Shown here: positions 23,902-47,922 of the stretch, in pieces | How the letters are laid out: each line of letters opens with the position of its first letter | Position numbering within the stretch: position 1 is the stretch's first letter | Assembly (NCBI GenBank): GCA_965248925.1 | Contig: CBDFLE010000005.1 | Span: 992,001 to 1,056,000 of the forward strand | From: Candidatus Multivoradales bacterium | Lineage (GTDB): Bacteria; Acidobacteriota; Thermoanaerobaculia; Multivoradales; J023 | DNA length: 64,000 nucleotides | Reading direction: 5' to 3' | Made by a program: the position numbers and the translations under genes | Notes under the pieces: model-generated | What the model saw: the letters and a program-made list of their open reading frames with translations, nothing else | Database searches by the model: none | What the model was told of the DNA's origin: nothing

Positions 23902-24307
23902 AATAATCTTCCGCGTCCCTTGCCAAGAACATCAGGTGCGATGGATCCGCAGTGGCGACCCGCAAGTACCGCCTGTAGCTCTCGACCGCGAGCAGATCGA
24001 GCAAGTGCTGATCAATATTGTCAAGAATGCCCTCGAAGCCATTACCAACGCCGGCAGCTTGGAGATCTCCCTCACCGCCGTCGATCGGCAGGTTGATCTG
24101 CGTATCCTCGACGATGGCTGCGGTCCTGATCCCGAGACCACAGCCCAACTCTGCAGCCCCTTCTTCAGCACCAAAGCCCAAGGCCAGGGCGTCGGCCTGA
24201 CTCTGGCCAAAGAAGTGCTGCACCAGCACGGCTTCGACTTCGCCCTGCAGCCGGCACCAGACGGCCGCACTTACTTTTTGCTACGGATGCCCCTGAGCAC
24301 GCAATAG
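23902..24307 (+). pseudogene. Sensor histidine kinase C-terminal (HATPase_c) fragment truncated by ISL3
   Basis: N-box QVLINIVKNALEA, DDGCG, PFFSTK and GQGVGL are present; no HisKA domain or proper start upstream. Confidence 0.75.
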
Positions 24308-24328
24308 AAATAGCGCCAGGACCAAGAA

Positions 24329-24718: not shown

Positions 24719-24745
24719 CACCACCAAAGCCCCGCACCGGTACGC

Positions 24746-24905
24746 CCGGGGCATTCCGGTTGCCTGGAGCGCCGAAAGTAACGGGCCAAGGCAAAGTGTT
24801 CGGCCAAGCATCGCCCGGCACACAGCGCCAAGCCCGGCAGCTCTAGCCACCAACGACCGCCGCGGACCTAAAGGCTCGGCGCGGAAGGCAACTGGAATAC
24901 CCCGG
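24746..24905. repeat. 160-bp element with 30-bp imperfect terminal inverted repeats (MITE/REP-like)
   Basis: CCGGGGCATTCCGGTTGCCTGGAGCGCCGA (24746-24775) matches the reverse complement of 24876-24905, CCGGGGTATTCCAGTTGCCTTCCGCGCCGA, at 25/30 positions. Confidence 0.7.
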
Positions 24906-24906
24906 A

Positions 24907-26587: not shown

Positions 26588-27739
26588 ATGAGCGCAGACT
26601 CCAAACAACCGACCCCGGCCGGCGAGAAGATCCTCGAGCGGCTCGCCGAACGGTCCTGGTCGATCGCCGAGATCGAGCGCCGCACACCGCTGACCAAGAA
26701 CACCATCGCCAATGCCATCTACGGTCCGCGGCAGCCGCAACGCAAGACCATCGAGATCCTCGCCACCGCCCTCGACCTACCGATCTCACAGCTCACCCGC
26801 CCCGAATTGGCGGCTATTGACACTGCTCGCTTTGCCAGCTTCGACAGCTGGCTGTTGCGATGGCGCAATCCCAGCCTGTGGATCTGCCTCGCTGGCGCCG
26901 CCCTGACCGCCTTCTTGCTCCGCCACGGTCTATCAGGCGGCGGCCTGTCGCCGGCCGTCCAAGGACTTCACGGCCTAGTCATCCTGGTGCTCTTATTGCG
27001 TCTGCCGCGAGCTTGGGTACGCCCCCGAACCTGGACCGACGCCACGGCTTCCCTACGCCTCGCCGCCGCCGCCGCGAGTGATTTTCGCCGCTACTGGGGA
27101 GCGGCCTGGACCTGTTGGCTGTTCCTCTATCTCGGCCTCACCGCCGGCGCCATATTCGGCCTATTGCCGAGCTCGGAAGTGCCCTACAGCAGTGCTAGCC
27201 GGTGGCTGATCGTCGGCCTGAACCTGATTCAGAACGGTGCCACAGTGATGCTGCTGCTGGGCTACGAAGTACTCGCCCGACCCACTATCGAGGCTGACCT
27301 GACCCGCAAACAGGTGCTGCCCACCGAAGCCTGGTTAGCCTTCGCCCTGCTCCTGCCACTACTCGAAGCGGCGGTGCTGGGGGCCGGCCTGTCGTGGCAA
27401 CTTCAGCAGTGGTTCGGCTGGATCAGCGGTTTCGCCCAGGGCACGGCCCTGGCCTTGATGGTGGGCCGCCTCGACAGCAAATACCTCGAGCCTCCGACCG
27501 TGGTGGTGGCCCTGCTCTACGTTTACGCCGCGATCCAAGGCGCCTGGCCGATGTTTCAATCCCACCACCAGCTGATGTTGGTGCTCACCTTCCTGGCGTT
27601 GGTGCTCAAGTGTTTGCTCTTCCTCTTCGTCGCTTGGTTGTTCGAGAGTCAGGTGCTGCTTTTCTACCTCGAACGGGTGCGACAACTCGACCACGGAGTG
27701 CGTACAGAGCGGGCGGATTATCTAGCACGGATCCAATGA
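26588..27739 (+). CDS. XRE-type HTH fused to an ~8-TM membrane domain
   Basis: N-terminal WSIAEIERRT.LTKNTI...PQRKTIEILATALDL HTH, followed by eight hydrophobic segments. Confidence 0.7.
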   Translation: MSADSKQPTPAGEKILERLAERSWSIAEIERRTPLTKNTIANAIYGPRQPQRKTIEILATALDLPISQLTRPELAAIDTARFASFDSWLLRWRNPSLWICLAGAALTAFLLRHGLSGGGLSPAVQGLHGLVILVLLLRLPRAWVRPRTWTDATASLRLAAAAASDFRRYWGAAWTCWLFLYLGLTAGAIFGLLPSSEVPYSSASRWLIVGLNLIQNGATVMLLLGYEVLARPTIEADLTRKQVLPTEAWLAFALLLPLLEAAVLGAGLSWQLQQWFGWISGFAQGTALALMVGRLDSKYLEPPTVVVALLYVYAAIQGAWPMFQSHHQLMLVLTFLALVLKCLLFLFVAWLFESQVLLFYLERVRQLDHGVRTERADYLARIQ

Positions 27740-28041
27740 AAGAGTCACCAACAACCCACCTCTCGACATCACTAGGCCGGCCCGAGCAGGCCGACGTCAA
27801 GGTTAGGTAAAAGCTCTTCTGGCACTCGAACTCCACAGCGCTGAAGTGCGTAGCTCGCCGTGTGTCCACCGATTCCCGCCCAGGTCGGCCCCCTCGGGCT
27901 AGCAGTCTCTCGTTGCTTTCTACAGCTGCTGCTTGCGCCCCTGCAAGCGCAAACGTAGGATGCCGGAAACACAGCCCAAACACACGACAGTTCCAGCACT
28001 TCTAGCCCAACGAATTACTCGCTCTGCAGAGAGGACCCAGG

Positions 28042-30273
28042 ATGCCCAGGTTCAGCAAGTTCTCAATACTCTCGCTCGCCGCCGTCGCGGCCTTTGTTTT
28101 GACGTTGCCGGCCCTTGCCGGCGAATGGACCGGCTGGCGCGGCCCGCACCAGAACGGTGTCTCCGATGAGACCGGCCTGCCCGCGAGTTGGTCCCGCGAC
28201 GGCGAAAATCTGATCTGGCGCGCGGATTTCGAAGGCCGCTCCTCGGTGATCGTCTTCGACGGCCGGGCCTGTGCCATCGGTCGCCTGGGCGAGGACATCG
28301 AACGCCAAGAGCGGGTCACTTGCTGGAATGCCGAGAACGGCACGCTGCTGTGGCAGAAGAGCTACACGGTCTACCAGACAGACGTGCCCTGGAACCGGGT
28401 CGGCTGGTCTAACCTGGTGGCCGATGCCGAAACCGGCTATGTCTTCATGCACACCGTCCACGGCGTCTTCGAGGCCCTTGATCGCCACGGCAAGTCGGTG
28501 TGGCGCCACCAGTTGGCCGAAGACTACGGTCGCCTCTCAGGCTATGGCGGTCGCACGCAAACTCCAACCGTCGACCAAGACCGGGTCTATCTCGGCACGG
28601 TCTCCTCCAACTGGGGCGATCAGCGAGCACCGCGGCATCGCTACATGGCCTTTGACAAGCACAGCGGCGAAATTCTCTGGGTTGCCACTCCGGGCGGTCC
28701 GCCAGCCGGCGACCTCAACACTCAAACTACCCCGGTGGTAGCGGTCATCGGCGGCCAGCGGCTGCTGATCACCGCCAGCGCCGATGGCGGCGTGCACGCC
28801 CTTGAGGCCCGTACCGGCCGCAAGGTGTGGAGCTTCCAACTTTCTCAGCGCGGCCTCAACATCAGCGTGGCAGTCGAAGGCGACACTGTTTTCGCTTCCC
28901 ACAGCGAAGAGAACCTCGACTCCGGCGTGATGGGTCGCCTAGTGGCGATCGACGCCACCGGCCGCGGCGATGTGACTAAGACCCATGAGCGCTGGCGGAT
29001 CGACGAGCTGCAATCCGGCTTCCCCTCACCGATGGTTCACGACGGCAAGGTCTACGTTGTTGACAACTCGGCCAATCTGCACGCCATCGACGCCACCAGC
29101 GGTCGGGAACTGTGGGCCCAGAACTTCGGCAACGTTGGCAAGTCCTCTCCAGTGTGGGCCGACGGTAAGATCTACCTTACCGAAGTCAACGGCAACATCA
29201 TCATTCTCGAAGAAGACGAGGACGGCGCCAAGATACTCGACCAAGAGCACCTCGAGGTGCCGGGCGGCCGCTACGCCGAGATCTACGCCAGCCCGTCGGT
29301 GGCATACGGCCGGATCTACTTCGCCACCGAGGAAGGGGTCTACTGCCTGGGCGACAAAGCAAAACCCTTCGTGGCCAGCAGCTCGCCGGCCATCGACCTA
29401 GGAGAGGCGCCAGCAACCGACGACGCCAAAGCCTCTCAGCTCTTGCTGGTGCCGGCTGAGCTGGTGATCGATGCTGGCCAAAGCATGACTTTCAAGGTGC
29501 GAGCCTACGACGATGGGGGCCGCTTTCTGCGCCAAGTCGATGGCGGTGAGTGGAGCCTGAGCGGCGTCGACGGCAAGCTCGCCAAGGGTCAGCTGGAGAT
29601 CGCCGCCAGCGCCCCCAATCAGGGTGGCACGGTGGCGGTCACGGTCGGCGAACTCAAGGCCCAAGCGCGAGTCCGGGTCACCGGCAAGCTACCCTGGACT
29701 GAGGACTTCGAACAGCTCGCCGACGGCCAACGTCCCAACCATTGGCGGCCGACCTTCAAAGCCGCCGCGGTGAAGACGCTGGAGGACGGCAACAAGGTCC
29801 TAGCCCAACCCAAGGCAGCCCGTGGAGCACCGCGCGCCTTCATCTATCTGGGCTCCTCCCACCAGCGCGGTTACACCATCGAAGTCGACGTGCTGGGGGC
29901 CAAGCAGGGTCGCCGGGTTACCGACTTGGGCATCACCAACAGCGGCTACACCCTCGACTTGCAAGGCGCCGCCCAAAGTCTGGTGGTGCGTTCCTGGAGG
30001 GCCGAGCGGCGGATGATGCAGAAGATCGATTTCCCGTGGCAGATGGGGGTTTGGTACACCTTGAAATTACGCGTCGACCTGCAAGCTGACGGCCAAGGAG
30101 GCCACCTCGCCATCGTCCGCGGCAAGGCTTGGAAGCGCGATCAACAAGAGCCCGAAGACTGGAACCTCACCGCCGAGGATCCCCGACCGGTAGCGGCCGG
30201 CAGCCCGGGGCTTTACACCTACGCGCCGGTCGAGTCGTACTTCGACAACATTCGGGTTTACGACAGCCCATGA
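28042..30273 (+). CDS. Secreted PQQ-binding-like (BamB-like) beta-propeller with C-terminal beta-sandwich extension
   Basis: Signal peptide, W.GWRGPHQNG, repeated D..TG..(V/L)W Trp-docking motifs, and ~300-aa C-terminal region ending YFDNIRV. Confidence 0.82.
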   Translation: MPRFSKFSILSLAAVAAFVLTLPALAGEWTGWRGPHQNGVSDETGLPASWSRDGENLIWRADFEGRSSVIVFDGRACAIGRLGEDIERQERVTCWNAENGTLLWQKSYTVYQTDVPWNRVGWSNLVADAETGYVFMHTVHGVFEALDRHGKSVWRHQLAEDYGRLSGYGGRTQTPTVDQDRVYLGTVSSNWGDQRAPRHRYMAFDKHSGEILWVATPGGPPAGDLNTQTTPVVAVIGGQRLLITASADGGVHALEARTGRKVWSFQLSQRGLNISVAVEGDTVFASHSEENLDSGVMGRLVAIDATGRGDVTKTHERWRIDELQSGFPSPMVHDGKVYVVDNSANLHAIDATSGRELWAQNFGNVGKSSPVWADGKIYLTEVNGNIIILEEDEDGAKILDQEHLEVPGGRYAEIYASPSVAYGRIYFATEEGVYCLGDKAKPFVASSSPAIDLGEAPATDDAKASQLLLVPAELVIDAGQSMTFKVRAYDDGGRFLRQVDGGEWSLSGVDGKLAKGQLEIAASAPNQGGTVAVTVGELKAQARVRVTGKLPWTEDFEQLADGQRPNHWRPTFKAAAVKTLEDGNKVLAQPKAARGAPRAFIYLGSSHQRGYTIEVDVLGAKQGRRVTDLGITNSGYTLDLQGAAQSLVVRSWRAERRMMQKIDFPWQMGVWYTLKLRVDLQADGQGGHLAIVRGKAWKRDQQEPEDWNLTAEDPRPVAAGSPGLYTYAPVESYFDNIRVYDSP

Positions 30274-30380
30274 CCGCATTTGAAAGATCCATGCTGATAT
30301 CTCAACTCACGACTCTTGATGACCTGCCAATAAGGATTCAGATGCCATTTGCCAGCCAGCCTGCGAGGAGCAAGCCGAAG

Positions 30381-31904
30381 ATGAGCGACCATAGATCAAT
30401 CCTCCACCCGACCCGCCGCCGTGGCCTGGCCACTCTCCTGGCCTGCTGCGGCCTGCTGACCGGTCTAGCCAGTCCGGCGATCGCCGCCGATCCCCCGCAA
30501 GCGATGTTTGGCGGCAGCCATGGGCGCAATATGGTGTCCAGTGAAACGGGTCTGCCCAGCGAGTGGGATGTCAAGACTGGCAAGAACATCAAATGGTCGC
30601 AAGCAGTCGGTTCCCAATCCTATGCCGGGCCGGTGATCCTCGATGGCAAGGTCTACGTCGGCACCAACAACGAGGGCCAGCGCGACCCCGAGGTGCAAGG
30701 GGACAAGGGCAACCTGATGGCCTTTAGCACCCAAGACGGCACCTTCCTCTGGCAAATGGTGCACGACAAACTGCCGCAGTCGAAACTGCACGACTGGCCG
30801 CTGCAGGGGGTCTGCTCAACGCCGGTGGTCGAGGGCAACAAGCTCTACTACACCTCCAACCGGGCCGAGATCGTCGCTCTCGATGTCGGCGGTCTGGCCG
30901 ATGGCAACGCCGGGCCGTTCCAGAGTGAGAAGTACCAGGGCGACCAGCATGGCGACGTAGTCTGGTCCTACGACATGATCACCGAACTCGACGCCTTCCC
31001 CCACAACCTGGCGGTGAGTTCGCCGCTGGTGGTGGGCGATCTGATCTACGTTTCCACCGGCAATGGTGTCGACGAGGGGCACGTCGACGTGCCGTCACCC
31101 TTGTCGCCAAGCTTCATCGCGATCAATAAGAAGACCGGCAAATTGGTGTGGGAAAGCGCCGCCCCCGGAACCTCGATCTTGCACGGCACCTGGACCAATG
31201 CCAGCTATGGGGTGATCAAGGGCAAGCCGCAGGTGCTCTTCCCGGGCGGCGACGGTTGGTTGTACTCTTTTGCGCCGAAGACTGGTGAATTGCTGTGGAA
31301 GTTCGACTGCAACCCGTCGGACTCGAAATGGCGGCTCGGCGGCTCGGGCACCCGCAACAACATCATCTCCTCAGCGGTGGTCTACGACGACAAGGTCTAC
31401 ATCGGCGTTGGCCAAGACCCTGAGCATGGTGAGGCTCCAGGGCACTTCTATGCCATCGACCCGAGCGCCAAGCCGGCGACGGGCAAAGACATCTCAGCCA
31501 CAGGAACGGTCTGGCATCGCGGTGGTGAGGACTTCAACCGCACCATCTCGACGGCAGCGATCCTGGACGACATTCTCTACATTACCGACCTCTCAGGCTT
31601 CCTCTACGCCCTCGACGCACAAACTGGCGAGCATTTCTGGACCTACGACGCCTTCGCCGCCATCTGGGGCTCCCCCTACGTCGCCGACGGCAAGGTCTAC
31701 CTCGGCGACGAAGACGGCGACATCGTAGTGTTGAAACACGGCAAGAAGCTTGTCGAGCTGGCCGAAGTCAACATGGGCAGCGCGGTTTACACCACGCCAG
31801 TGGCCCACGATGGCGTGCTCTACGTGCTAGCCCGCAACCGGCTATTCGCGCTTCAGGAAGGCGTGCAGATGTCGGCTGATGGTGGCAAAACGACCGCTCC
31901 CTGA
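30381..31904 (+). CDS. Secreted PQQ-binding-like beta-propeller protein
   Basis: GAGGAG RBS; signal peptide with RRR; MFGGSHGRNMVS; repeated KTGKLVW/TGELLW motifs. Confidence 0.82.
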   Translation: MSDHRSILHPTRRRGLATLLACCGLLTGLASPAIAADPPQAMFGGSHGRNMVSSETGLPSEWDVKTGKNIKWSQAVGSQSYAGPVILDGKVYVGTNNEGQRDPEVQGDKGNLMAFSTQDGTFLWQMVHDKLPQSKLHDWPLQGVCSTPVVEGNKLYYTSNRAEIVALDVGGLADGNAGPFQSEKYQGDQHGDVVWSYDMITELDAFPHNLAVSSPLVVGDLIYVSTGNGVDEGHVDVPSPLSPSFIAINKKTGKLVWESAAPGTSILHGTWTNASYGVIKGKPQVLFPGGDGWLYSFAPKTGELLWKFDCNPSDSKWRLGGSGTRNNIISSAVVYDDKVYIGVGQDPEHGEAPGHFYAIDPSAKPATGKDISATGTVWHRGGEDFNRTISTAAILDDILYITDLSGFLYALDAQTGEHFWTYDAFAAIWGSPYVADGKVYLGDEDGDIVVLKHGKKLVELAEVNMGSAVYTTPVAHDGVLYVLARNRLFALQEGVQMSADGGKTTAP

Positions 31905-31915
31905 GGCAAGCGATC

Positions 31916-33013
31916 ATGGTGGATGTCATCATTCCCGGCGAGTTGGAAGCCAAGGCGGCCAAGGCGCGCCAGCATCTCGACTCTCATCTGCGCGACGTCG
32001 TCGCCTGGCATTTCGATCCCGATCGCGGCACTCCCTTTTGGCTCGACAAAGAGCGTGAGTTGGGAATCAACGCGCGCAAGGAGGTGCACACCTTCGACGA
32101 CCTTCGCATCTTCGGCCATTTCCAGGACGAATGGCTCCGCGGTGGCCCGGCTCGGCGCTGGCTGCCACGGGGGTTTCGCGGCAAGCCGATCTACGTTTTC
32201 GAGACCGGCGGTTCCACTGGCCTGCCCAAGAGTCGCATCAATTTGCAGGACTTCGAGATCGATTACGAGCTGTTCGCCGACCAACTCGACGACGAGACCT
32301 TCCCCCGCGGCGCCGACTGGTTGATGCTCGGCCCCTCGGGACCGCGTCGGCTGCGGCTGGCGATCGAGCATCTGGCGCAATATCGCGGCGGTATCGCCTT
32401 CTGCATCGACCTCGATCCGCGATGGGTCAACAAATTGGTCAAGGCGCAGCGTTGGGACGAGATGAACGCTTACAAGGATCACGTCATTGATCAGGCGCTG
32501 AAGATCCTCCGCGGTCACGATTCCGTGCAGTGCATCTTCACCACTCCCAAGCTGCTCGAAGCCCTGTGCGAGAAGGTCTCGTTGGAGAAGTACGGCATCA
32601 CCGGCATCTTCTGCGGCGGCACCGAGATGAACGCCGAGTTTCACCGCTTCGTGCGCGAAGAACTGGCGCCGCAAGCTGATTTTAGGCCGGTCTACGGCAA
32701 CACGCTGATGGGTTTAGCGCCGACCCCCCCCTTCGACCCGGTGAAGAAGGACTACACCATCTCCTACTATCCGCCGCTGCCCCGCGCGGTGTTCGAGATC
32801 GTCGATCCGGACGATCCAGACACCCTGGTCGACTATGGAGAAACTGGTCGTGTGATCCTCACCACCCTGACCCGTGAGTTCTTCATGCCCCGCTTCTTGG
32901 AACGTGATGAGGGGGAGCGCGCGGCTCCCTGCGAGATCTATCCTTGGGACGGGGTGTCGAACCTGCGACTGTTCTCGCGCTTCAACAAATCGGTGGCCGT
33001 GGGGGTCTACTGA
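31916..33013 (+). CDS. EhpF/GriC-like truncated adenylate-forming (aryl-carboxylate activating) enzyme
   Basis: WHFDP..GTPFW start; ANL P-loop-like FETGGSTGLPK; YGNTLMG; 365 aa, lacking the ANL C-terminal domain as EhpF does. Confidence 0.7.
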   Translation: MVDVIIPGELEAKAAKARQHLDSHLRDVVAWHFDPDRGTPFWLDKERELGINARKEVHTFDDLRIFGHFQDEWLRGGPARRWLPRGFRGKPIYVFETGGSTGLPKSRINLQDFEIDYELFADQLDDETFPRGADWLMLGPSGPRRLRLAIEHLAQYRGGIAFCIDLDPRWVNKLVKAQRWDEMNAYKDHVIDQALKILRGHDSVQCIFTTPKLLEALCEKVSLEKYGITGIFCGGTEMNAEFHRFVREELAPQADFRPVYGNTLMGLAPTPPFDPVKKDYTISYYPPLPRAVFEIVDPDDPDTLVDYGETGRVILTTLTREFFMPRFLERDEGERAAPCEIYPWDGVSNLRLFSRFNKSVAVGVY

Positions 33014-33015
33014 CC

Positions 33016-34449
33016 ATGTCGTTGCTACGACTGCCGATGCTGCGCGCCGGCGAGCCCTACTTCAGCCTCAAGACCATGACGCTGACCGATATTCGCGACG
33101 GTTCGCCGGTGGCCGAGGTCAGCCAGGCGATCCCCGGCATCATCGCCCGCGACCTCCTACGCATCGCCGACAGTCGGCGGGCGCTCGAGGCACTGCCGGT
33201 AGCCCGGCTACTGGCAATCTGCCGCGAGGCCGGCCGCCGTTTCCTCGAAGACACCCTGCCGGTCGGCGAGCAAGAGCAAACGCCGGACGACTACCTCGAG
33301 CAACTCGCCGCCACCACCGGCATGCCGGTGGTCATGGGGCGGCTGAATATGGGCAAGATTTTCAAGGTCCTGGACGAGATGGAGGCGGTGCTCGACGGCC
33401 TCACCCGCGGTCTCGATCTGCGGGTGCTCGACCATGGCTGGGCAGTGCAGAACGAGCGCCAACTGAGCTACATGCGACTGAGCGACGCGCTGGGCGCGGT
33501 GCTGCCCAACAACTCCCCCGGCGTGCATTCCCTGTGGTTGCCGGCAATTCCGCTAAGAACACCGCTGGTGCTCAAGCCCGGCAGTGCCGAGCCCTGGACG
33601 CCGCTGCGCATTGCCCAGGCGATGATCGCCGCCGGCTGCCCCAAAGAGGCCTTTTTCCTCTACCCCACGGACCACGGCGGCGCCACCGAACTGCTGCTGC
33701 GCTCGGGCCGCTCGTTATTCTTCGGCGATGCCAGCACCGTCGCAGGGTGGCGCGCCAGCGGCAAGGTACAAGTCCACGGTCCGGGCTGGAGCAAAGTCAT
33801 CCTGGCCGCCGACCAGGCCGACGCCTGGGAGCAACACCTGGACCTGATGGTGGGCTCGATCACCGCCAACGGCGGCCGCTCGTGTATCAATGCTTCCGGT
33901 GTCTGGACCACCGCCCACGGCCGCGAGCTAGCGGCGGCACTGGCCAGCCGACTAGCGGCGATAGAAGCCCGTCCACTGGACGATCCGCAAGCCGCCCTAG
34001 CGGCATTTCCCGACCCAGAGGTGGCGCGGCGAATCTCAGAGAGAATCGATCAGCAGTTAGCTGAGACGCCCGGCGCGGTGGATCTGACCGCCGCAGTTCG
34101 TGGAGCGGAGCGGGTGGCGGAGGCCGGAGGCTGCACCTTCCTGCTGCCCACCGTGATCTGGTGCGAAGATCCCACCCACCCACTGGCCCACAGCGAGTAC
34201 GGTTTCCCCTTTGCCGCCGTGGTTGAGCAGCCGGAAAAATTGCTAGTGCAAGCCATCGGGCCCACCTTGGTGGGCTCAGTGGTGACCGCGACGGAAGAGG
34301 GCGAACGGCGTTTCTTGGCTTGCCGCCACATCGATCGGCTCAACTTTGGAGCGATCCCGACGTACGAGATCTCATGGGATCAACCCCACGAAGGCAATCT
34401 GTTCGATCACCTCTACCAGCAACGTGCTTTTCAGCGGCGGTCTGCTTGA
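33016..34449 (+). CDS. ALDH-fold protein, GriD/LuxC-like acyl reductase
   Basis: Motifs LPNNSPGVH, LKPGS.EP, catalytic Cys in NGGRSCINAS and EYGFPFA; HGPGWSK sits where ELGGK is expected. Confidence 0.72.
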   Translation: MSLLRLPMLRAGEPYFSLKTMTLTDIRDGSPVAEVSQAIPGIIARDLLRIADSRRALEALPVARLLAICREAGRRFLEDTLPVGEQEQTPDDYLEQLAATTGMPVVMGRLNMGKIFKVLDEMEAVLDGLTRGLDLRVLDHGWAVQNERQLSYMRLSDALGAVLPNNSPGVHSLWLPAIPLRTPLVLKPGSAEPWTPLRIAQAMIAAGCPKEAFFLYPTDHGGATELLLRSGRSLFFGDASTVAGWRASGKVQVHGPGWSKVILAADQADAWEQHLDLMVGSITANGGRSCINASGVWTTAHGRELAAALASRLAAIEARPLDDPQAALAAFPDPEVARRISERIDQQLAETPGAVDLTAAVRGAERVAEAGGCTFLLPTVIWCEDPTHPLAHSEYGFPFAAVVEQPEKLLVQAIGPTLVGSVVTATEEGERRFLACRHIDRLNFGAIPTYEISWDQPHEGNLFDHLYQQRAFQRRSA

Positions 34450-34471
34450 TGGACTGTTCGGTGGTCGCCCG

Positions 34472-35659
34472 GTGAGCGGCCACGCTCCATGGCGGCCCGA
34501 TGGCACCTGGAAGGTAGATCTGGGAGGCATCGAGGTGACCTTTGGCGACCACACCCTAAGTCGCCTCGGAGATCTCTGCCGCGCCGCTGGCATGTCGCGA
34601 GTGCTGCTGGTGACCGATCCCGGGATCGTCGAGGCGGGGCATATCCGCCCAGCCTTGGCGGCGCTCGCCGAAGCTGGGCTGAAAGCAGCCGTATTCGACG
34701 GCGTTGGCGAAAATCCCACCACCGAGCACGTCGCCGCCGGGGTTGACGCAGCTCGGCAGTTGGGCGCCGATGGGCTAGTGGGGCTAGGTGGCGGCAGCTC
34801 GATGGACTGCGCCAAAGGGGTCAACTTCCTGCTCACCCAAGGCGGCTCGATGGCCGACTATTGGGGCGATGGCAAGGCCAGACGAACCATGTTGCCCGCA
34901 ATCGGCGTACCGACTACTGCCGGTACTGGCAGCGAGGCACAACGTTTTGCCCTAATCTCGGACGTCGAGACTCATCGCAAAATGGCCTGTGGCGATCGCC
35001 GAGCCCGCTTTCACAGCGTTATTCTCGACCCCCGGCTGTTGACCAGCCTGCCCCGCTCGGTAGCGGCGGTCACCGCCATGGACGCTCTGTCCCACGCCGT
35101 CGAGAGCTACGTCACCCGACGCCGCAACCCGATTTCGCAACTCTTCGCCCGCGAAGCCTGGCGCCTGCTGGAACGCAGCTTCGAACGTTTCCTCGCCGAC
35201 CCCGAAGATCCGGCCAGCGCCGACATGTTGCTCGGCGCCCACCTGGCCGGCGCCGCCATCGAAACCTCGATGCTCGGCGCGGCCCACTCCTGCGCCAATC
35301 CGCTGACCGCCCGCTACGGCGTCACCCACGGCGTGGCGGTAGGTCTGATGCTGCCACCGGTGGTGCGGTTCAACGGCAACGAAGTCGAACCCCTCTACCG
35401 TGAACTGGCCACTACCGCCTCGCTCAACGGCGACCTCGGCAATGGATCAAGTGGCGGCGCCAGCGCCCTACGGGTCAGCCGCCGGGTCAGTGAATTGCGC
35501 GCCGTCGCGGGGCTGCCTGGCCGGCTCGAAGATTGTGGCGTCGAGCGCCCACGTTTGCGCGAGCTAGCGGAGGCCGCTGCCAAAGAATGGACCGCCAGTT
35601 TCAATCCCCGCGCTGTTGGCGCCGACGAACTCGAGTCGATCTATGTCGATGCTTTCTGA
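34472..35659 (+). CDS. Iron-containing alcohol dehydrogenase
   Basis: Motifs GLGGGSSMDCAK, PTTAGTGSE, DALSHAVE and H...HG metal ligands. Start uncertain. Confidence 0.9.
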   Translation: MSGHAPWRPDGTWKVDLGGIEVTFGDHTLSRLGDLCRAAGMSRVLLVTDPGIVEAGHIRPALAALAEAGLKAAVFDGVGENPTTEHVAAGVDAARQLGADGLVGLGGGSSMDCAKGVNFLLTQGGSMADYWGDGKARRTMLPAIGVPTTAGTGSEAQRFALISDVETHRKMACGDRRARFHSVILDPRLLTSLPRSVAAVTAMDALSHAVESYVTRRRNPISQLFAREAWRLLERSFERFLADPEDPASADMLLGAHLAGAAIETSMLGAAHSCANPLTARYGVTHGVAVGLMLPPVVRFNGNEVEPLYRELATTASLNGDLGNGSSGGASALRVSRRVSELRAVAGLPGRLEDCGVERPRLRELAEAAAKEWTASFNPRAVGADELESIYVDAF

Positions 35660-35713
35660 AGCGCGGCAGCGGTTTTGTCGGCATCGGAACCGATCGCGGT
35701 GGAGCCTGCAAGC

Positions 35714-36871
35714 ATGAAGTGGGTCACCCCCGCGGCAGCGGCGTTGCTCTTTTGGATTCTCCTGACGGCCGCGGCCATCCAAACCCAGCCGGCTACTAGC
35801 GTCGACACTTGGGGCCAGTTCCGCGGCGGCGGCGCCCAAACCGGTGTCGCCACCAGCTCCCTCGAAGGCGATCTCCAACCACTCTGGACCTTCGAGGCAG
35901 ACGACGCCATCGAAGCCACCGCCGCCATCGCTGGCGACACGGTCTATGTCGCCTCCCTCGATGGCAGGCTCTACGCCCTTGACCTCAAGACCGGCCAAGA
36001 GAAATTCCGCTACGACGCCGGAGACGAGATCAAGTCCTCTCCCTTGGTGGCCGCCGGCCGGGTCTACTTCGGCGACGAATACGGCCGCCTGCACGCCATC
36101 GACGCCGCGACCGGCAAGCGGATCTGGGTTTTCGAAACCGACGCCAGCATCTCGGGCTCGGCCAACTTGGGTGATGGTTGCCTGGTCTTCGGCGCCTACG
36201 ACAACTACCTCTACTGCCTCAATCCCAAGGACGGCAAGCTGCGCTGGAAGGTCGAAACCGAAGGCTACATCCAAGCTACACCCGCGATCTGGAACGGCCA
36301 GTCGATCTCGACCGGCTGCGACGGTTTTCTGCGCCAACTCGATCTGCGCAGTGGCGAAGCCAAAGGCCAGATAGCGCTCGGCGGCTACGTCGCCTCTAGT
36401 CCAGCAATCGCCGGCAGCAGGGCCTTCCTGGGCTCGTTCGACAACAAAGTGCTGGCGGTCGATCTGGCGGAACAGAAGCTCTTGTGGGAATACAAACACC
36501 CCAAGCGGGAGTTTCCTTTCTTCAGTTCGCCAGCAGTGTCCGGCAACCGGGTGGTGATCGGCGGTCGCGATAAAATCGTCCATGCCTTAGATCCCGAGAG
36601 CGGTGAGGCGGCGTGGACGGTAACCCTACGAGCGCGGGTCGATGCCTCGCCGGTGATCTCCGGGCAGCGAGTCTTCGTCGCCGATCAAAGCGGCGTGCTG
36701 CTCGCCCTGGCCCTGGACGACGGCAGCGAGAGCTGGCGCTTCGAAACCGGCGACAGTTTCACCGCTTCGCCGGCCATCGCCTCAGGCACCCTGGTCATCG
36801 GCACCGACGGCGGGGTGGTCTACGCCTTTACCCCCTCCGCCACAGCTAGAGAAACGAAGGAGCTTCCATGA
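35714..36871 (+). CDS. Secreted PQQ-binding-like (BamB-like) beta-propeller protein
   Basis: Signal peptide, WGQFRGG..QTG and eight SSP...G.(L/V)YA.D..TG...W blades. Confidence 0.85.
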   Translation: MKWVTPAAAALLFWILLTAAAIQTQPATSVDTWGQFRGGGAQTGVATSSLEGDLQPLWTFEADDAIEATAAIAGDTVYVASLDGRLYALDLKTGQEKFRYDAGDEIKSSPLVAAGRVYFGDEYGRLHAIDAATGKRIWVFETDASISGSANLGDGCLVFGAYDNYLYCLNPKDGKLRWKVETEGYIQATPAIWNGQSISTGCDGFLRQLDLRSGEAKGQIALGGYVASSPAIAGSRAFLGSFDNKVLAVDLAEQKLLWEYKHPKREFPFFSSPAVSGNRVVIGGRDKIVHALDPESGEAAWTVTLRARVDASPVISGQRVFVADQSGVLLALALDDGSESWRFETGDSFTASPAIASGTLVIGTDGGVVYAFTPSATARETKELP

Positions 36872-38217
36872 CTGACTCCACCGCTCCCGCGGGCGTCCCG
36901 CCGGCCAAAAAGGCAACGGAAGTCGGCAGCGTTTTCGTCTCCAACTATCCACCCTTCTCAGTGTGGGGCGAGGACGGGCTCGACGATTACCGGCGCCAGC
37001 TAGCTACACCGCCGGCCAAAGAGTCCCCAACTCTGGGTCTCTACCTCCACATTCCGTTCTGCCGCAAGCGCTGCAAGTTCTGCTACTTCAGAGTTTACGT
37101 CGATAAGAACGCAGGGGAGATTCAACGCTACCTGGATTGCCTGGCGCGCGAAGTAGAGCTTTACGCCGCCCAACCGGCGTTCGCCGAGCGGAAACTCGAC
37201 TTCGTCTACTTTGGCGGCGGCACACCTTCTTACATCGCCGCCAAGCATCTGCGGTCGCTGGTCGATCGCATCCAAGCCGTGCTTCCTTGGCAGCAGGCGC
37301 AGGAGATAACTTTCGAATGCGAGCCCGGCACCCTGACCCAATCCAAGCTCGACGCCATCCGCGAGATCGGCGTCACCCGGCTCAGCTTGGGTATCGAGAA
37401 TTGGAACGATGACATCTTGCGCGACAACGGCCGCGCCCACCTAACTCCAGAGATCGACCGCTGCCTGCCCTGGATCCGCGAACGGGGCTTCGATCAGCTC
37501 AACGTCGATCTGATCGCCGGCATGGTCGGCGAGACCTGGGAGACCTGGCGCGACACGGTGCAGCGCACCATCGACATCGACCCCGACAGCGTCACCATCT
37601 ACCAGATGGAATTGCCTTTCAACACTGTCTATTCCCAAGGCATCCTAGACGGCGGCAGCTCGCCGGTGGCCGATTGGCAGACCAAGAGGGCCTGGAATGA
37701 CCACGCCATCAAGCAGCTGAGCACTGCCGGCTACGAGATTTCGAGCGCTTACACCATGGTCAAGAAGCGCTCTGGCGACACCAGTGGCAAGAGCCGCTTC
37801 GCCTACCGCGACTCGCTGTGGCACGGCGCTGACCTGCTTGGCACCGGCATCGCCTCCTTCGGCCACCTCGGCGGCGTACATTTCCAGAATGTCACCGGCT
37901 GGAAGCCCTATCTCGACGCTCTAGAGGCCGGCGAGCTGGCCCTCGGCCGCGCTTACGCCACCACGGCCGACGAACGCCTGACCCGCGAGTTGATCTTGCA
38001 AATGAAACTCGGCAGGCTGGGCACTAGCTATTTCCGCGACAAATTCGGCGTCGACGTGCTGGACCGCTGGCGCCAGAAGTTCGCTGACCTCGAACAACGG
38101 CAGATGCTGAGCATCGACGGCGACCACATCGAACTCAGCCGCCGTGGCCTACTGCAGGTCGATAGCCTGCTGCCCGGTTTCTACGATCAGCGCTTCCAGA
38201 ACGCCCGCTACACTTGA
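36868..38217 (+). CDS. HemN-like (class C) radical SAM enzyme
   Basis: Motifs LYLHIPFCRKRCKFC (CxxxCxxC), YFGGGTPS, RLSLG and NVDLIAG; N-terminal SNYPPF; HemN-type C-terminus. Confidence 0.88.
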   Translation: MTDSTAPAGVPPAKKATEVGSVFVSNYPPFSVWGEDGLDDYRRQLATPPAKESPTLGLYLHIPFCRKRCKFCYFRVYVDKNAGEIQRYLDCLAREVELYAAQPAFAERKLDFVYFGGGTPSYIAAKHLRSLVDRIQAVLPWQQAQEITFECEPGTLTQSKLDAIREIGVTRLSLGIENWNDDILRDNGRAHLTPEIDRCLPWIRERGFDQLNVDLIAGMVGETWETWRDTVQRTIDIDPDSVTIYQMELPFNTVYSQGILDGGSSPVADWQTKRAWNDHAIKQLSTAGYEISSAYTMVKKRSGDTSGKSRFAYRDSLWHGADLLGTGIASFGHLGGVHFQNVTGWKPYLDALEAGELALGRAYATTADERLTRELILQMKLGRLGTSYFRDKFGVDVLDRWRQKFADLEQRQMLSIDGDHIELSRRGLLQVDSLLPGFYDQRFQNARYT

Positions 38218-38239
38218 TTTCGAAGACCTGGAGATAATC

Positions 38240-39496
38240 ATGCACTCCCTACGTCCCGGCCTCCTGCTCACCAGTCTGCTGTTCGCCAGTCTTTTGCTCA
38301 CCGGCCTGCTGAGCACTACCTCCGTCTTCGCCCAGATCAAACCAGTCGATTGGCCGAGCTTCCGCGGTGCCAATCGCGACGGCCTTTCCGCAGAGAAGGG
38401 CCTAGCCACCACTTGGCCAGAAGACGGCCCGCGGATGATTTGGCGGGCCGATGGTGGTTCCGGCTTCTCCAGCTTGGTGCTGGTCGCTGGCCGCCTCTAC
38501 ACCCAACTCGGCCGTGACGGCGACGAGCTGCTAGCCGCCTTCGACGCCGGCAACGGTCGCCCGCTGTGGACCTACCGCACCGGCAGTGAGCGCCCTGACG
38601 ATTGGGGCAAAGGGCCGCGGTCGACGCCCCTCTTTGACGATGGTTTGCTCTACGCCGCCAGCGCCCTCGGCCAGCTGCACGCGGTCAAGGCCGACAACGG
38701 CGAAATGGTGTGGAGCCACGACCTGGTCAAAGAGTACGGCGCGCGAGTACCCACCTGGGGGATTTCCAGTCAACCGCTGGTGGAAGGCGATCTGCTGCTC
38801 TTCGATACCGGCGGCAAGGCCGGCCACTCGATTCTCGCCTTCGACAAGAAAAGTGGAGCGCTGCGTTGGAAAAGCGGTTCACGCCTGCCCGGCTACTCCA
38901 ACCCGATCGCCTTCGACAGCGTCGGCAAACGGCAGGTCCTTTTCTTCACCGGCAACGGCTTGGTGGCTCTGGCGCCAAAGGACGGCAAGGAGCTGTGGAG
39001 CTTCGATTGGCAAACCAGCTACGACATCAACGCCGCTAGCCCAATCTTCATCCCGCCCAACAGAATCCTGGTCTCGAGCGGCTACGACGTTGGCAGCGCC
39101 CTACTCCAGCTCTCTCCCGCCGAAGATGGCATAGCGGTCAAAGAGCTGTGGCGAAGCCGCCGCCTGAAGAACAAATTCAGCTCCTCGGTCTACAGCGAAG
39201 GCTACCTCTACGGCTTCGACGAAGCGACGCTCAAGTGCATCGACGCCACCACCGGCGACGAGATCTGGCGCCAAAGGGGCCTCGGCCACGGGTCTTTGAT
39301 CTGGGCCGATGGCCACCTCATCGTGCTCGGCGAAAAAGGCCAGCTGGTGCTGGTAGAAGCTACGCCCGAGAGCTACCAAGAGAAGGCCCGCACCCAAGTC
39401 ACCACCGGCAAACACTGGACCGCGCCAACGGTTTACGCCGGCCGGTACTACCTGCGCAACGAGAAGGAGATCGTCTGCTTGAAGGCAACCGGGTAA
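38240..39496 (+). CDS. Secreted PQQ-binding-like beta-propeller protein
   Basis: GGAG RBS; signal peptide; DWPSFRGANRDG, GPRSTP and repeated G...W blade motifs. Confidence 0.85.
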   Translation: MHSLRPGLLLTSLLFASLLLTGLLSTTSVFAQIKPVDWPSFRGANRDGLSAEKGLATTWPEDGPRMIWRADGGSGFSSLVLVAGRLYTQLGRDGDELLAAFDAGNGRPLWTYRTGSERPDDWGKGPRSTPLFDDGLLYAASALGQLHAVKADNGEMVWSHDLVKEYGARVPTWGISSQPLVEGDLLLFDTGGKAGHSILAFDKKSGALRWKSGSRLPGYSNPIAFDSVGKRQVLFFTGNGLVALAPKDGKELWSFDWQTSYDINAASPIFIPPNRILVSSGYDVGSALLQLSPAEDGIAVKELWRSRRLKNKFSSSVYSEGYLYGFDEATLKCIDATTGDEIWRQRGLGHGSLIWADGHLIVLGEKGQLVLVEATPESYQEKARTQVTTGKHWTAPTVYAGRYYLRNEKEIVCLKATG

Positions 39497-39518
39497 GAGC
39501 GGGAGCTTCCGGGCATCT

Positions 39519-39570
39519 CAGTTGTCTTTCACGGCTTGACCGCAGTGAAAGACAACTGTAATATTTGTCT
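39519..39570 (+). promoter_or_regulatory. Sigma70-type promoter overlapped by a perfect 14-bp inverted repeat (likely TA operator and/or terminator)
   Basis: TTGACC (39536-41), 17 nt, TAATAT (39559-64); IR arms CAGTTGTCTTTCAC (39519-32) and GTGAAAGACAACTG (39545-58). Confidence 0.7.
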
Positions 39571-39682
39571 TGAGGCAGGCTACGCCGCCAGGCTAAGACC
39601 CTGCGGCGGTCGATTGGGGAAACCGTGACTTCGCCCGCTAGCGACCGACAGGGCAAAGGGCAAAACAAGGGAGCCAGGCCGG

Positions 39683-40024
39683 ATGCCAACGACAGCAGTT
39701 GCAAGAATACTCGACGACCTCAAAAGTCGCGGAGGTTTACGCGGCGCCGACATCGCCAATATTGTCGATGTCTCTCCCCCCACGGTTTCGCGCTGGACCA
39801 CCGGCAAGGGATCTCCTCCCTTGAGTACCCAGACCGAGATCGCCGACTTAAGATTCGTGGTCGAGAGGCTGTCGGATTTCTACACCCCAGACGAAACCAG
39901 ACTTTGGCTGCACACTCCCCACCCCCTGCTCGACCGCGAACGAGCCGTTGACTTGATCCACTCAGGAAAAATCAAAGAGGTCTTGGCGGTTATCGATCGC
40001 ATAGAGGCGGGAGTCTTTCTCTAA
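39683..40024 (+). CDS. Antitoxin, Xre/MbcA/ParS family
   Basis: HTH (IANIVDVSPPTVSRW) plus a C-terminal WLHTPHPLL...AVDLI motif; upstream of a RES gene. Confidence 0.85.
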   Translation: MPTTAVARILDDLKSRGGLRGADIANIVDVSPPTVSRWTTGKGSPPLSTQTEIADLRFVVERLSDFYTPDETRLWLHTPHPLLDRERAVDLIHSGKIKEVLAVIDRIEAGVFL

Positions 40025-40028
40025 TTCG

Positions 40029-40577
40029 ATGAATAATGACCGAAGAGCGCGCGATCTGGCGCTCTTAGACTTCCTCGACAAGTTGGATCGGGTGCCGCTA
40101 AAGGCTACGGTCTGGCGCATCGTCCGCGAAGGCCGCGACCCCCTACTTTGCAGCTCCTCGGCAGGGCGCTGGGATCCGGGCCGTTTCGACGTTCTCTACA
40201 CCTCCTGCAGCGCCGAAGGAGCCCTCGCGGAAGTACACTTCCACCTCTCCAGGCAGCCCGTATTTCCCTCTGCTTCTTTTCTGCTGAACGAGATCCACAT
40301 CGAGACACGACGCACCTTGCAGCTGTCGGGGTCCGCAGATCTCAGAGCTTTAGGAGTCAACCCAGACGACTCCCAAGGCGTTCTGTACCAGAGAAGCCAG
40401 GAAATCGGCGACGCCGCCGCATTCTTAGGATTCGATGCGATCGTTGTTCCCAGCGCGCGTTGGCAGTGCCTTAACTTGGTCGCTTTTTGCGACAGCTTGG
40501 AGCCGGGGGATATTGAGCTCGCGAGCTCGGCAGAGGTTGATTGGACTGGGTGGAGAGGTAAGAGCAAAGACATTTGA
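40029..40577 (+). CDS. RES-domain toxin (NAD+ phosphorylase-like)
   Basis: GRWD...VLYTS....ALAE and VPSAR carry the R/E/S residues. Confidence 0.85.
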   Translation: MNNDRRARDLALLDFLDKLDRVPLKATVWRIVREGRDPLLCSSSAGRWDPGRFDVLYTSCSAEGALAEVHFHLSRQPVFPSASFLLNEIHIETRRTLQLSGSADLRALGVNPDDSQGVLYQRSQEIGDAAAFLGFDAIVVPSARWQCLNLVAFCDSLEPGDIELASSAEVDWTGWRGKSKDI

Positions 40578-41396: not shown

Positions 41397-41978
41397 ATGG
41401 CAACAAGTTCTGGCGAGGTCACGGAGCTGCTCCGGGCGTGGGAGAAGGATCCGGAAGCACTCGATCGGCTACTTCCGCTGGTGATGGAAGAGGTGCGCAC
41501 GCTGGCTCGTAGGGCGCTGTTGGGGGAAGGTCGCGGCTATTCGCTGGAACCCACCGAGCTGCTTAACGAGGTCTATCTGCGTCTGGTTGGCCGCAAGGTC
41601 TACTGGTGGAAGAACCGCGCCCAATTCTTCAGTATCCTGGCCGAGCTGATGCGGCGCATTCTGGTCGATCGAGCCCGCCGCCGGCTGGCCGCCAAGCGCG
41701 GCAGCGGCGCCGAGAAGCTGAGTCTGGATGAAGGTATCTTCGCCGCTGACCAGCCCGACCCACAGCTGATCTTGCTCGACGACGCGCTGCAGCAGCTGAA
41801 GAAGCTGGATCCGATGAAGTACAAGATCGTTTCCCTCAGCTTCTTCGTCGGCCTGAGCCAGAAGGAGACCGCCAAAGAACTCGGCGTGTCGGTCAATACC
41901 GTTGGCCGTCACTGGCAGGCAGCCCGCCTGTGGCTGCAAACCCAGATGTTGCAGAGCGACAATCAGGGCACAAAGTGA
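41397..41978 (+). CDS. ECF-type sigma factor (kinase-associated, TIGR02999-like)
   Basis: EVTELLRAW....ALDRLLPLV, MRRILVDRARRRLAAKRG and region 4 ETAKELGVSVNTV.R.W..AR.WL. Confidence 0.88.
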   Translation: MATSSGEVTELLRAWEKDPEALDRLLPLVMEEVRTLARRALLGEGRGYSLEPTELLNEVYLRLVGRKVYWWKNRAQFFSILAELMRRILVDRARRRLAAKRGSGAEKLSLDEGIFAADQPDPQLILLDDALQQLKKLDPMKYKIVSLSFFVGLSQKETAKELGVSVNTVGRHWQAARLWLQTQMLQSDNQGTK

Positions 41979-47903: not shown

Positions 47904-47922
47904 ACGACAGAAAGGAGATTGC

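Follow-up and report, generated by a model that had tools for sequence, protein, structure and literature searches.

The 64,000-nucleotide stretch of the genome of Candidatus Multivoradales bacterium analysed here (GenBank assembly GCA_965248925.1, contig CBDFLE010000005.1, positions 992,001 to 1,056,000; hereafter the window, with positions counted from its first letter) contains at 28042-39496 an operon of eight genes, designated g1 to g8, in which relatives of aryl-acid-reducing enzymes and a radical SAM enzyme are interleaved with four secreted beta-propeller proteins of the pyrroloquinoline quinone (PQQ)-like repeat type. A second module of five genes lies 11 kb downstream (50433-57662), and both modules very probably form one functional system of about 13-14 genes. 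The system is an orphan small-molecule gene cluster, unusual in that four secreted propellers are integrated into it and in its breadth and conservation. The initial annotation of this DNA had treated the operon as a self-contained unit, a view that must be given up because the second module and a TonB-dependent transporter (TBDT) encoded elsewhere in the genome belong to it. Domains were called with Pfam and NCBIfam on the open reading frames (ORFs) of the window, and start codons were chosen from ortholog alignments (ATG 30381 for g2, ATG 33016 for g4 and ATG 38240 for g8), which leave the start of g5 uncertain between GTG 34472 and GTG 34514. The genes of the operon are as follows.

28042-30273, + strand: g1, Sec-exported PQQ_2 propeller (Pfam PQQ_2, E 2e-28)
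30381-31904 (longer ORF from 30129), + strand: g2, Sec-exported PQQ_2 propeller (Pfam, E 5.5e-27)
31916-33013, + strand: g3, EhpF/GriC-type truncated adenylate-forming enzyme (weak Pfam AMP-binding match)
33016-34449 (longer ORF from 32944), + strand: g4, EhpG/GriD-type partner of the aldehyde dehydrogenase (ALDH) superfamily, putative thioester-forming reductase (Pfam Aldedh, divergent)
about 34472-35659 (ORF from 34346), + strand: g5, iron-containing alcohol dehydrogenase (Pfam Fe-ADH, E 2e-46; ADH_Fe_C, E 1.6e-33)
35675-36871 (alternative start ATG 35714), + strand: g6, Sec-exported propeller (Beta-prop_ACSF4, 212.8 bits, cut-off 133)
36868-38217, + strand: g7, HemN-family radical SAM enzyme (Pfam Radical_SAM and HemN_C)
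38240-39496 (longer ORF from 38144), + strand: g8, Sec-exported PQQ_2 propeller (Pfam, E 1.9e-31)

As had been claimed, the eight ORFs are co-oriented and closely spaced, all of them on the plus strand and in this order; with the chosen starts, the intergenic spacing ranges from -4 to about 110 bases, the end of g6 and the start of g7 overlapping by 4 bases. The arrangement is not due to chance, since the order and strand of g1-g7 are kept in 10 of the 18 loci retrieved from relatives of the same order, and the order of g1-g7 is also kept in Poribacteria, Latescibacterota, Gemmatimonadota and Phycisphaerae. A scan of 27400-40200 for promoters and terminators returned sites no more numerous than in shuffled sequence. 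The stretch is present in four public-run entries from a single study, with no holder of RNA among them. The genes of the second module are given below.

50433-51698, + strand: h1, flavin-dependent halogenase-like enzyme (matches to halogenases in the PDB, motifs)
51695-53059, + strand: GT4-family glycosyltransferase (Pfam Glycos_transf_1, E 3.8e-35)
53093-53527, + strand: 4HBT/YbgC-type hotdog thioesterase (Pfam 4HBT, E 6.9e-13)
53548-54297, + strand: LolD/MacB-type ATP-binding cassette (ABC) ATPase (TIGR02211 LolD, 260 bits, cut-off 308; Pfam ABC_tran)
54282-57662, + strand: duplicated FtsX permease of 1126 amino acids (aa) with a MacB-like periplasmic core domain (Pfam FtsX twice, MacB_PCD)

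Linkage, co-occurrence and distribution of the two modules

The 11 kb between the modules in the window are occupied by unrelated genes (a RES toxin, an extracytoplasmic function (ECF) sigma factor, a Ser/Thr kinase, a PPC-domain protein and a TorD-like chaperone, as well as three Roadblock/LC7 genes, a protoglobin and a small GTPase), and it is in other genomes that the two are found joined. Two loci (L119 and L120) contain g1-g7, the TBDT, h1, the GT4 enzyme, the thioesterase, the ABC ATPase and the FtsX permease in one contiguous series, and three more (L114, L116 and L117) contain g5-g6-g7-g8, the TBDT, h1, in places a symporter, the GT4 enzyme, the thioesterase, the ATPase and the permease. 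In 20 of the 40 loci of at least 19 kb (long loci), the genes directly after g3-g4 are not g5-g8 but those for the GT4 enzyme, the ABC ATPase, an FtsX permease 1100-1200 aa in length and a propeller, and the permease of the window aligns end to end, at 42% identity, with the permease found behind g3-g4-GT4-ABC in L052. In several genomes h1 adjoins g7, and a thioesterase-family gene sits between the GT4 and ABC genes in L114 and L119 as it does in the window. Of the 11 long loci with g7, 6 include a TBDT ortholog; the ortholog in the genome of the window (45% identical) is found 28.6 kb past the end of the window. Three cluster TBDTs (L119, L114 and L013) score 236.2, 236.0 and 246.0 bits against TIGR01783, the subfamily of TonB-dependent siderophore receptors, and so exceed its cut-off of 223.5. 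The symporter of some clusters belongs to the sodium:solute family (Pfam SSF, E 1.4e-36) and occurs in 3 of 80 loci.

The same picture emerges from gene content in a sample of 151 Acidobacteriota genomes, each at least 90% complete. The g3 gene is present in 40 of these; the permease occurs in 42 (all 40 g3-positive genomes plus G145 and G153) and g2 in 41 (the same 40 plus G153). The radical SAM gene g7 was found in 36 genomes, every one g3-positive, and is absent from the g3-positive genomes G075, G161, G176 and G206, while h1 at E < 1e-100 was found in 35, again all of them g3-positive; weaker h1 relatives (36-41% identity) occur in six g3-negative genomes. The pattern is all-or-none by family, and no statistic is attached to it because related genomes are not independent. 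These counts include three unpublished genomes: G107 and G202, in each of which g3, g2, the permease, g7 and h1 were all found, and G082, where a weak h1 paralog is the sole match; without G107 and G202 (n=149) the counts become 38 for g3, 39 for g2, 40 for the permease, 34 for g7 and 33 for strong h1 matches, and no conclusion changes. Whether the genes are conserved together in other genomes had been named beforehand as a test on which the initial annotation could fail; they are co-conserved, and the refutation fails.

The labels of g3 homologs and of the loci agree in assigning the organism to Acidobacteriota, its closest relatives bearing the labels Thermoanaerobaculia and "Candidatus Multivoradales". 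Outside the Acidobacteriota, the permease is present in all five g3-positive genomes examined (two Planctomycetota and one each of Gemmatimonadota, Poribacteria and Latescibacterota), g3 was found in 19 of 101 sampled Planctomycetota genomes, and bins that carry the labels KSB1 and Calditrichia contain the gene set as well. More than 554 matches to g3 were obtained in a collection of species genomes and more than 8000 homologs in a collection of metagenome proteins, the best 120 of which are 67-76% identical. The g3 tree is arranged largely by phylum (9 label changes, compared with a minimum of 6 and a shuffled mean of 25.9). The clade that holds the g3 of the window contains, besides Thermoanaerobaculia-type Acidobacteriota, sequences from Poribacteria, Latescibacterota and Gemmatimonadota (27 rows; 99% support in the Shimodaira-Hasegawa-like approximate likelihood ratio test, SH-aLRT). 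An old transfer between phyla is likely here, as this mixed-phylum clade is the one with the contiguous g1-g8 architecture.

The enzymes, the exporter and the secreted propellers

Two-protein reductases that use ATP and NAD(P)H to reduce aryl carboxylates are represented by GriC/GriD and EhpF/EhpG, of which EhpF and GriC act on the aryl acids, and g3 and g4 probably form a carboxylate reductase of this two-protein kind. The g3 protein (365 aa) matches the structure of EhpF (366 aa; 3l2k/3hgu) with E 1.3e-38 in a phmmer search of the PDB, residues 20-349 of the query aligning with residues 19-349 of the chain; the Pfam AMP-binding domain spans residues 203-313 only, and Pfam detects no C-terminal ANL subdomain (AMP-binding_C) in g3. 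Orthologs of g3 are 355-388 aa long and 60-76% identical in 42 of 61 relatives, with 36% of positions conserved at 95% or more. The g4 gene starts 3 bases past the end of g3 and adjoins it in 36 of the 40 long loci, an order also seen on a Pantoea agglomerans plasmid, where an EhpF homolog within a phenazine cluster is followed by an "aldehyde dehydrogenase family protein". Since g4 matches this Pantoea neighbour over its full length (26% identity, E 8e-29) and a haloarchaeal partner from a Halalkalicoccus plasmid (27% identity, E 5e-33) far better than it matches ordinary ALDHs in the PDB (best E 1.1e-8), it is assigned to the EhpG/GriD type and not to the generic ALDHs. Its Cys290, presumably the catalytic residue, is invariant in 26 of 26 sequences and aligns with a Cys of the Pantoea partner.

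Structure prediction supports binding of g3 and g4 to each other. The predicted complex scores 0.78, whereas the best of three controls scores 0.00; the benchmark counts for this score (reached by 58 of 80 solved complexes and by 2 of 110 mismatched pairs) hold only roughly because the alignments were custom-made. Contact agreement between runs was at least 79% and partner pLDDT (the per-residue model confidence) at least 91. The full-length match to EhpF, the homology of the partner and the complex that scores above its controls bear out the EhpF/GriC-like and GriD-like labels of the initial annotation. The likeness to EhpF/EhpG of the D-alanylgriseoluteic acid cluster of Pantoea agglomerans and to GriC/GriD of grixazone biosynthesis lies in the adjacency of a short adenylating enzyme and an ALDH-like partner with the Cys retained. 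The differences are that identity to g3 and g4 is just 26-33%, that no phz or 3,4-AHBA genes lie near g3/g4, that the pair sits instead among propellers, an Fe-ADH, a HemN-like enzyme, a halogenase-like enzyme, a GT4 enzyme and a MacB-type exporter, and that it is kept at the high identity given above across phyla, while the actinomycete and enterobacterial pairs are found in antibiotic clusters. A second, distant pair of EhpF-like and ALDH-like genes (31% and 27% identity) occurs at L029 9513-12013 in G044, a genome that also has the main pair, and the two-gene module therefore exists in other contexts.

The product of g5 exceeds the Pfam cut-off for Fe-ADH (158.1 bits, cut-off 31.3), and D246, H250, H314 and H328 (numbered from 34346) show conservation of 95% or more across 31 sequences; from the pattern Asp-x3-His...His...His, these four are taken to be the metal ligands, and the earlier Fe-ADH label is upheld. 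A sequence of acid to aldehyde to alcohol over g3, g4 and g5 is a reasonable inference from the biochemistry of GriC/GriD and EhpF.

The g7 protein is HemN-like, as had been proposed, and falls below every curated NCBIfam cut-off examined: 188.9 bits against HemN (TIGR00538, cut-off 324.95), 180.6 against HutW/ChuW (cut-off 400), 168.9 against STM4012 and 158.4 against HemW (cut-off 205). It has the CxxxCxxC motif but reads C-R-K-R-C-K-F-C-Y-F where HemN (1olt) reads C-H-K-L-C-Y-F-C-G-C; the fourth Cys of CxxxCxxCxC, a hallmark of HemN, is thus replaced. A role as a true HemN, the oxygen-independent coproporphyrinogen III oxidase, was rejected on these two grounds. The match to NocN (9p2u; E 4.8e-27) is restricted to the radical SAM core (residues 52-248), and methylation of the class C kind is a guess. 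In g7, 29% of positions are conserved at 95% or more, and the genome of the window contains only one further HemN-family gene (27% identity).

In the second module, h1 matches the halogenases 8zop, CndH, CmlS, PltA, Bmp2 and Mpy16 in the PDB with E values from 6e-61 to 2e-48. Flavin-dependent halogenases are recognised by the motifs GxGxxG and WxWxIP and by a Lys near position 75, and those nearest to h1 act on phenols or pyrroles. The corresponding elements of h1 are GAGPAG, WLWYIP (W221-P226) and K75, and the GxGxxG motif, W221, W223, I225, P226 and K75 do not vary among the 15 sequences compared; from the numbering of CndH and CmlS, K75 is presumed to be catalytic. An alternative assignment of h1 as a maker of protein-derived quinones like LodB or QhpG was discarded, as matches to QhpG, LodB and GoxB are weak, the halogenases are far closer and their motifs are kept. 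The PDB relatives of the thioesterase include 4-hydroxybenzoyl-coenzyme A (CoA) and DHNA-CoA thioesterases. The ATPase scores 260 bits against LolD, 185 against MacB and 165 against DevA; being below the equivalog cut-offs of both LolD and MacB, it is regarded as a member of the family and not as an ortholog of either. By their sequences, the ATPase and the permease can be placed together among the type VII (MacB/LolCDE-like) ABC exporters.

Each of the four propellers, like its orthologs, has a Sec signal peptide followed by a conserved W-x-x-[WFY]-R-G motif. They share the fold class of BamB and the PQQ dehydrogenases (the g2 model aligns with BamB at TM 0.74-0.81 on the target), but g2 has about 130 extra residues in conserved loops and all four fall below the family cut-offs, with 62.8 (g1), 81.1 (g2), 201.7 (g6) and 57.8 bits (g8) against BamB (TIGR03300, cut-off 285.2) and 42-89 bits against PQQ dehydrogenases (TIGR03075, cut-off 480). 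The scores against TIGR03300 rule out that the propellers are plain BamB orthologs, a possibility raised when the operon was first annotated. A search of the genome of the window (96.9% complete) for the PqqC family (PF03070) gave no matches.

Of the four, g2 is the most conserved: 117 of 507 positions (23%) are at least 95% conserved in 45 sequences, compared with 11-13%, chiefly Trp and Gly, in g1, g6 and g8. The conserved residues include H208, H234, H268, H349, C145, D231, D346 and E348 and lie in loop insertions, which makes g2 a candidate for a periplasmic enzyme or a metal site. Its model (pLDDT 85.5) is of the 8-blade type with a fold near those of BamB, tetrathionate hydrolase (a cofactor-less enzyme) and PQQ alcohol dehydrogenase (PQQ-ADH). 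A profile search of the PDB with the orthologs returned repeat-level matches only, and a protein-atlas search returned only unnamed PQQ-repeat clusters. Export of g2 through the twin-arginine (Tat) pathway was considered, as the copy in the window has an RRR motif, and rejected because its orthologs carry ordinary Sec signals. A second g2-type propeller (49% identical) is encoded in the same genome (G000:C6:3164811-3166052), and two copies of g2 are present in several other genomes.

The g1 protein combines an 8-blade-type propeller (residues 30-445, approximately) with an Ig-like domain and a galectin/lectin-like jelly-roll (residues 450-743). Pfam finds no match in this C-terminal part, but its model (about 290-294 residues; pLDDT 93) has folds nearest to galactocerebrosidase, Big_2-CBM56 modules and galectins. 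The match to galactocerebrosidase extends over roughly one quarter of its chain of 641 residues (TMq 0.50, TMt 0.25), presumably the lectin domain of that enzyme, and the model fits binding of a sugar by g1. Orthologs of g1 are 46-60% identical and lie upstream of g2-g3. The gene is split in two in Poribacteria, with a propeller gene and a gene for an Ig-like/lectin-like lipoprotein (L048 6106-7443 and 7425-8396, the lipoprotein signal Cys following LAAG; also L050, L055, L058, L060 and L061). In the loci examined g6 always adjoins g7, and its orthologs have signal peptides; the ortholog at L015 13460-14478 consists of two tblastn pieces that abut at 14032/14035 and may be frameshifted or broken. 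The least constant member is g8, whose orthologs are 42-55% identical, lie downstream of g7 and are duplicated in some loci.

Possible functions of the system

The reading favoured here, although tentatively, is that the system makes a small decorated aromatic compound, exports it, handles it in the periplasm and recaptures it, in a manner resembling a metallophore cycle. It is based on homology, linkage, phyletic co-occurrence, conserved residues and the predicted g3-g4 complex; the chemical steps and their order, the aromatic substrate, what the propellers do in the periplasm and the involvement of a metal are all inferred. An aromatic substrate is preferred because of the aryl-acid relatives of g3 and g4, the halogenase likeness of h1 and the 4HBT family of the thioesterase, and the enzymes taken together favour a substrate that, once released from a thioester, is reduced and halogenated, perhaps C-methylated, and glycosylated. 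According to this proposal, the thioesterase would free an aryl acid from CoA or a carrier thioester, g3 would adenylate it, and the bound g4 would take the acid onto Cys290 and reduce it to the aldehyde, which g5 would turn into a benzylic alcohol. The ring would then be decorated by h1 and g7 and a sugar attached by the GT4 enzyme, after which the LolD-like ATPase and the giant FtsX/MacB-type permease would expel the product. In the periplasm, the four Sec-exported propellers would bind or process the compound, with g2 likely to be catalytic or metal-binding and the lectin-like domain of g1 binding the sugar, and the siderophore-type TonB receptor would return the compound, possibly loaded with metal, to the periplasm.

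A known parallel is the pyoverdine cycle, in which a siderophore is matured in the periplasm, recycled by the MacB-type pump PvdRT-OpmQ and taken up through the TonB receptor FpvA. The likeness extends to a cytoplasmic precursor, a MacB/FtsX-type pump, dedicated periplasmic proteins and a receptor of the siderophore subfamily. Here, in contrast, there is no non-ribosomal peptide synthetase (NRPS), the periplasmic proteins are PQQ_2 propellers and not homologues of PvdM/N/O/P/Q, any metal binding is hypothetical, and neither a membrane-fusion protein nor an outer-membrane factor is seen in the conserved set.

Several observations weigh against the metallophore-like cycle. No chelating group can be predicted from the enzymes, and the conserved set contains neither an NRPS nor an NRPS-independent siderophore (NIS) synthetase; it also lacks a ferric reductase and a periplasmic binding protein paired with an ABC importer. 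A search of the window for a Fur box with at most 3 mismatches gave no matches, a weak test, since the consensus is proteobacterial and uninformative for this phylum. The TBDT is not adjacent to the cluster in the window or in many other loci. The identity of g3 across phyla (60-76%) exceeds what is usual in siderophore or secondary-metabolite pathways and would suit a function of a more central kind. With these queries no g7 or h1 was found in four or five of the 40 g3-positive genomes, so that ring decoration may be optional; the putative halogenase assignment of h1 itself rests on motifs. Finally, the symporter present in some clusters would fit import of an acid instead.

The strongest competitor, though rather unlikely, is that the product is a diffusible specialised metabolite, a halogenated aromatic antibiotic or signal that is secreted, with the propellers and the TBDT as accessories for self-protection or sensing. 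A halogenase-like enzyme, a radical SAM enzyme, a glycosyltransferase, a thioesterase and an ABC exporter are typical tailoring and export genes, and both the patchy distribution, family by family, and the g3 clade of type I that mixes phyla, suggesting transfer, speak for this reading. Clusters of this kind are treated in this way in the main text of an August 2026 survey of sponge metagenomes, which describes a "Halo_AMP pseudoclass" defined by a halogenase that is flavin-dependent together with an enzyme of the AMP-binding kind (bioRxiv 10.64898/2026.08.03.742642). The survey reports radical SAM, glycosyltransferase, thioesterase, ABC and TonB-dependent transporter genes, with PQQ-like domains "at high frequency", in hosts that include Acidobacteriota, Latescibacterota and Poribacteria, and its main text names no product (bioRxiv 10.64898/2026.08.03.742642). 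It differs from the present case in its focus on CC A, a P450-containing variant not seen here, and the terms "aldehyde dehydrogenase", "alcohol dehydrogenase" and "FtsX" are absent from its main text, although the present architecture may be among the survey's 20 components or appear in its figures and supplementary tables S3-S5 (bioRxiv 10.64898/2026.08.03.742642). The statement in the initial annotation that no pathway of this architecture had been described accordingly holds in one respect, as no product or mechanism was found in print, and fails in another, as similar orphan clusters are listed in that survey (bioRxiv 10.64898/2026.08.03.742642). A limited literature search on EhpF, GriC/GriD, arylcarboxylate reductase and PQQ propellers of Acidobacteria found nothing on this system. 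What speaks against a specialised metabolite is the very high conservation over a wide range (40 of 151 genomes in Acidobacteriota, 19 of 101 in Planctomycetota and over 554 species genomes), the presence of g2 and the permease together with g3 in 40 of 40 genomes, which marks them as core parts and not accessories, and the lack of a core scaffold synthase.

A new exported organic cofactor, a possibility named in the initial annotation, is improbable. A redox-active aromatic compound would be loaded into propeller enzymes of the g2 type and scavenged by the TBDT, as PQQ is by the transporter PqqU. In favour of this are the far greater conservation of g2 relative to the other propellers, its loops containing His, Asp, Glu and Cys residues that do not vary, the co-occurrence of g2 with g3 in every one of the 40 genomes, the lack of a PqqC-family gene in the genome of the window and the failure of any propeller to reach the PQQ-dehydrogenase cut-off. 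The enzymes, however, do not allow any cofactor chemistry to be deduced, and it is unusual for a cofactor to carry a sugar or a halogen; the TBDTs match PqqU weakly (30-47 bits, cut-off 1200), the fold search with g2 comes no closer than BamB, tetrathionate hydrolase and PQQ-ADH, and the conserved set holds no electron-transfer partner such as a cytochrome. There is a similarly small chance that an uncharacterised exported cofactor or metallophore loaded into g2 defines a hitherto undescribed class of quinoprotein-like or metallo-propeller enzymes of the periplasm, in bacteria without PQQ synthesis; if this were true, g2 would be the founding member of that class and the TBDT would let cells share or scavenge the compound.

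Slightly less probable still is an envelope glycolipid, in which a fatty or isoprenoid acid would be reduced, glycosylated and placed into the outer membrane by the Lol/Dev-like ABC system, with the propellers as periplasmic carriers. GT4 enzymes include glycolipid synthases, the ATPase resembles LolD and DevA (260 and 165 bits) and the permease is of the FtsX/MacB type, the C-terminal fold of g1 resembles part of a glycolipid hydrolase (galactocerebrosidase), the thioesterase is YbgC-like, and the h1 family reaches 149.5 bits against geranylgeranyl reductases (cut-off 158.8). On the other side, the known relatives of g3 and g4 act on aryl acids and relatives are annotated as "arylcarboxylate reductase", h1 matches halogenases with E 6e-61 and geranylgeranyl reductases with E 1.6e-11 and keeps both WxWxIP and the Lys, and a siderophore-type TBDT has no place in lipid export. 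The weakest alternative, that an aromatic acid or glycoside is taken up from outside and converted (import by the TBDT and a symporter, detoxification or conversion by the enzymes and removal of the product by the ABC pump), accounts for the TBDT, for the symporter of some clusters and for the symporter that adjoins the haloarchaeal EhpF-like/ALDH pair, but is very unlikely given that the symporter occurs in 3 of 80 loci only, that the halogenase, GT4 and radical SAM enzymes are biosynthetic in character and that the conserved set contains no ring-cleavage or beta-oxidation genes.

Whichever compound is made, roughly one in four of the sampled Acidobacteriota and one in five of the sampled Planctomycetota have the gene set, and its carriers are dominant but poorly understood lineages of soils, sediments and sponge symbionts. 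Identifying the compound, possibly a new metallophore, cofactor or halogenated metabolite, would give a function to thousands of "hypothetical" proteins and explain the tie between secreted PQQ-like propellers and cytoplasmic chemistry, with relevance to nutrient cycling and to the orphan halogenated compounds of sponges.

Other features of the window

The initial annotation had stated that the window contains no polyketide synthase, NRPS, phz core or pqq gene. None was found among the 47 ORFs scanned with Pfam, about nine ORFs of at least 180 aa being outside that scan, and the statement needs to be qualified for 17368-19440 (- strand), a 690-aa fusion of an N-terminal glutamine amidotransferase with a chorismate-binding enzyme, from a superfamily that also holds PhzE and PabAB. 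The order of domains, with the amidotransferase at the N-terminus, is presumably that of aminodeoxychorismate synthases of the PabAB type. This enzyme could supply an aryl acid; the gene is not syntenic with the cluster in other loci. It is followed at 15440-17371 (- strand) by a 643-aa ORF with no Pfam match.

Directly after g8 lies a RES-domain toxin gene (40029-40577, + strand; Pfam, E 1.5e-17), with a 108-aa ORF upstream of it (39625-39951) that has no Pfam match and could encode the antitoxin. Farther into the region between the modules, the gene for an ECF sigma factor (PF07638) runs into the beginning of one for an 815-aa Ser/Thr kinase that has TPR repeats (41397-44377, + strand), a TorD/DmsD-like chaperone of the type that proofreads Tat substrates is encoded at 46097-46945 (+ strand) with no molybdoenzyme seen adjacent, and 47382-49838 (+ strand) holds the three Roadblock/LC7 genes, the protoglobin and a small Ras-like GTPase, by look an MglA/MglB-like signalling module. 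Upstream of the operon, 7012-11759 (- strand) encodes an HSP70-like pair, one member of which has DUF3731 ("DNA-K related protein"), and 14025-15416 (+ strand) a DDE transposase (DUF772/DDE_Tnp_1). The transposase lies in a segment (12001-16000) where GC content falls to 0.59-0.60, compared with 0.62-0.66 in the flanks, and at 24001-26000 a strong compositional skew between the strands (GC skew -0.29, AT skew +0.34) was recorded over a minus-strand sodium:neurotransmitter symporter gene.

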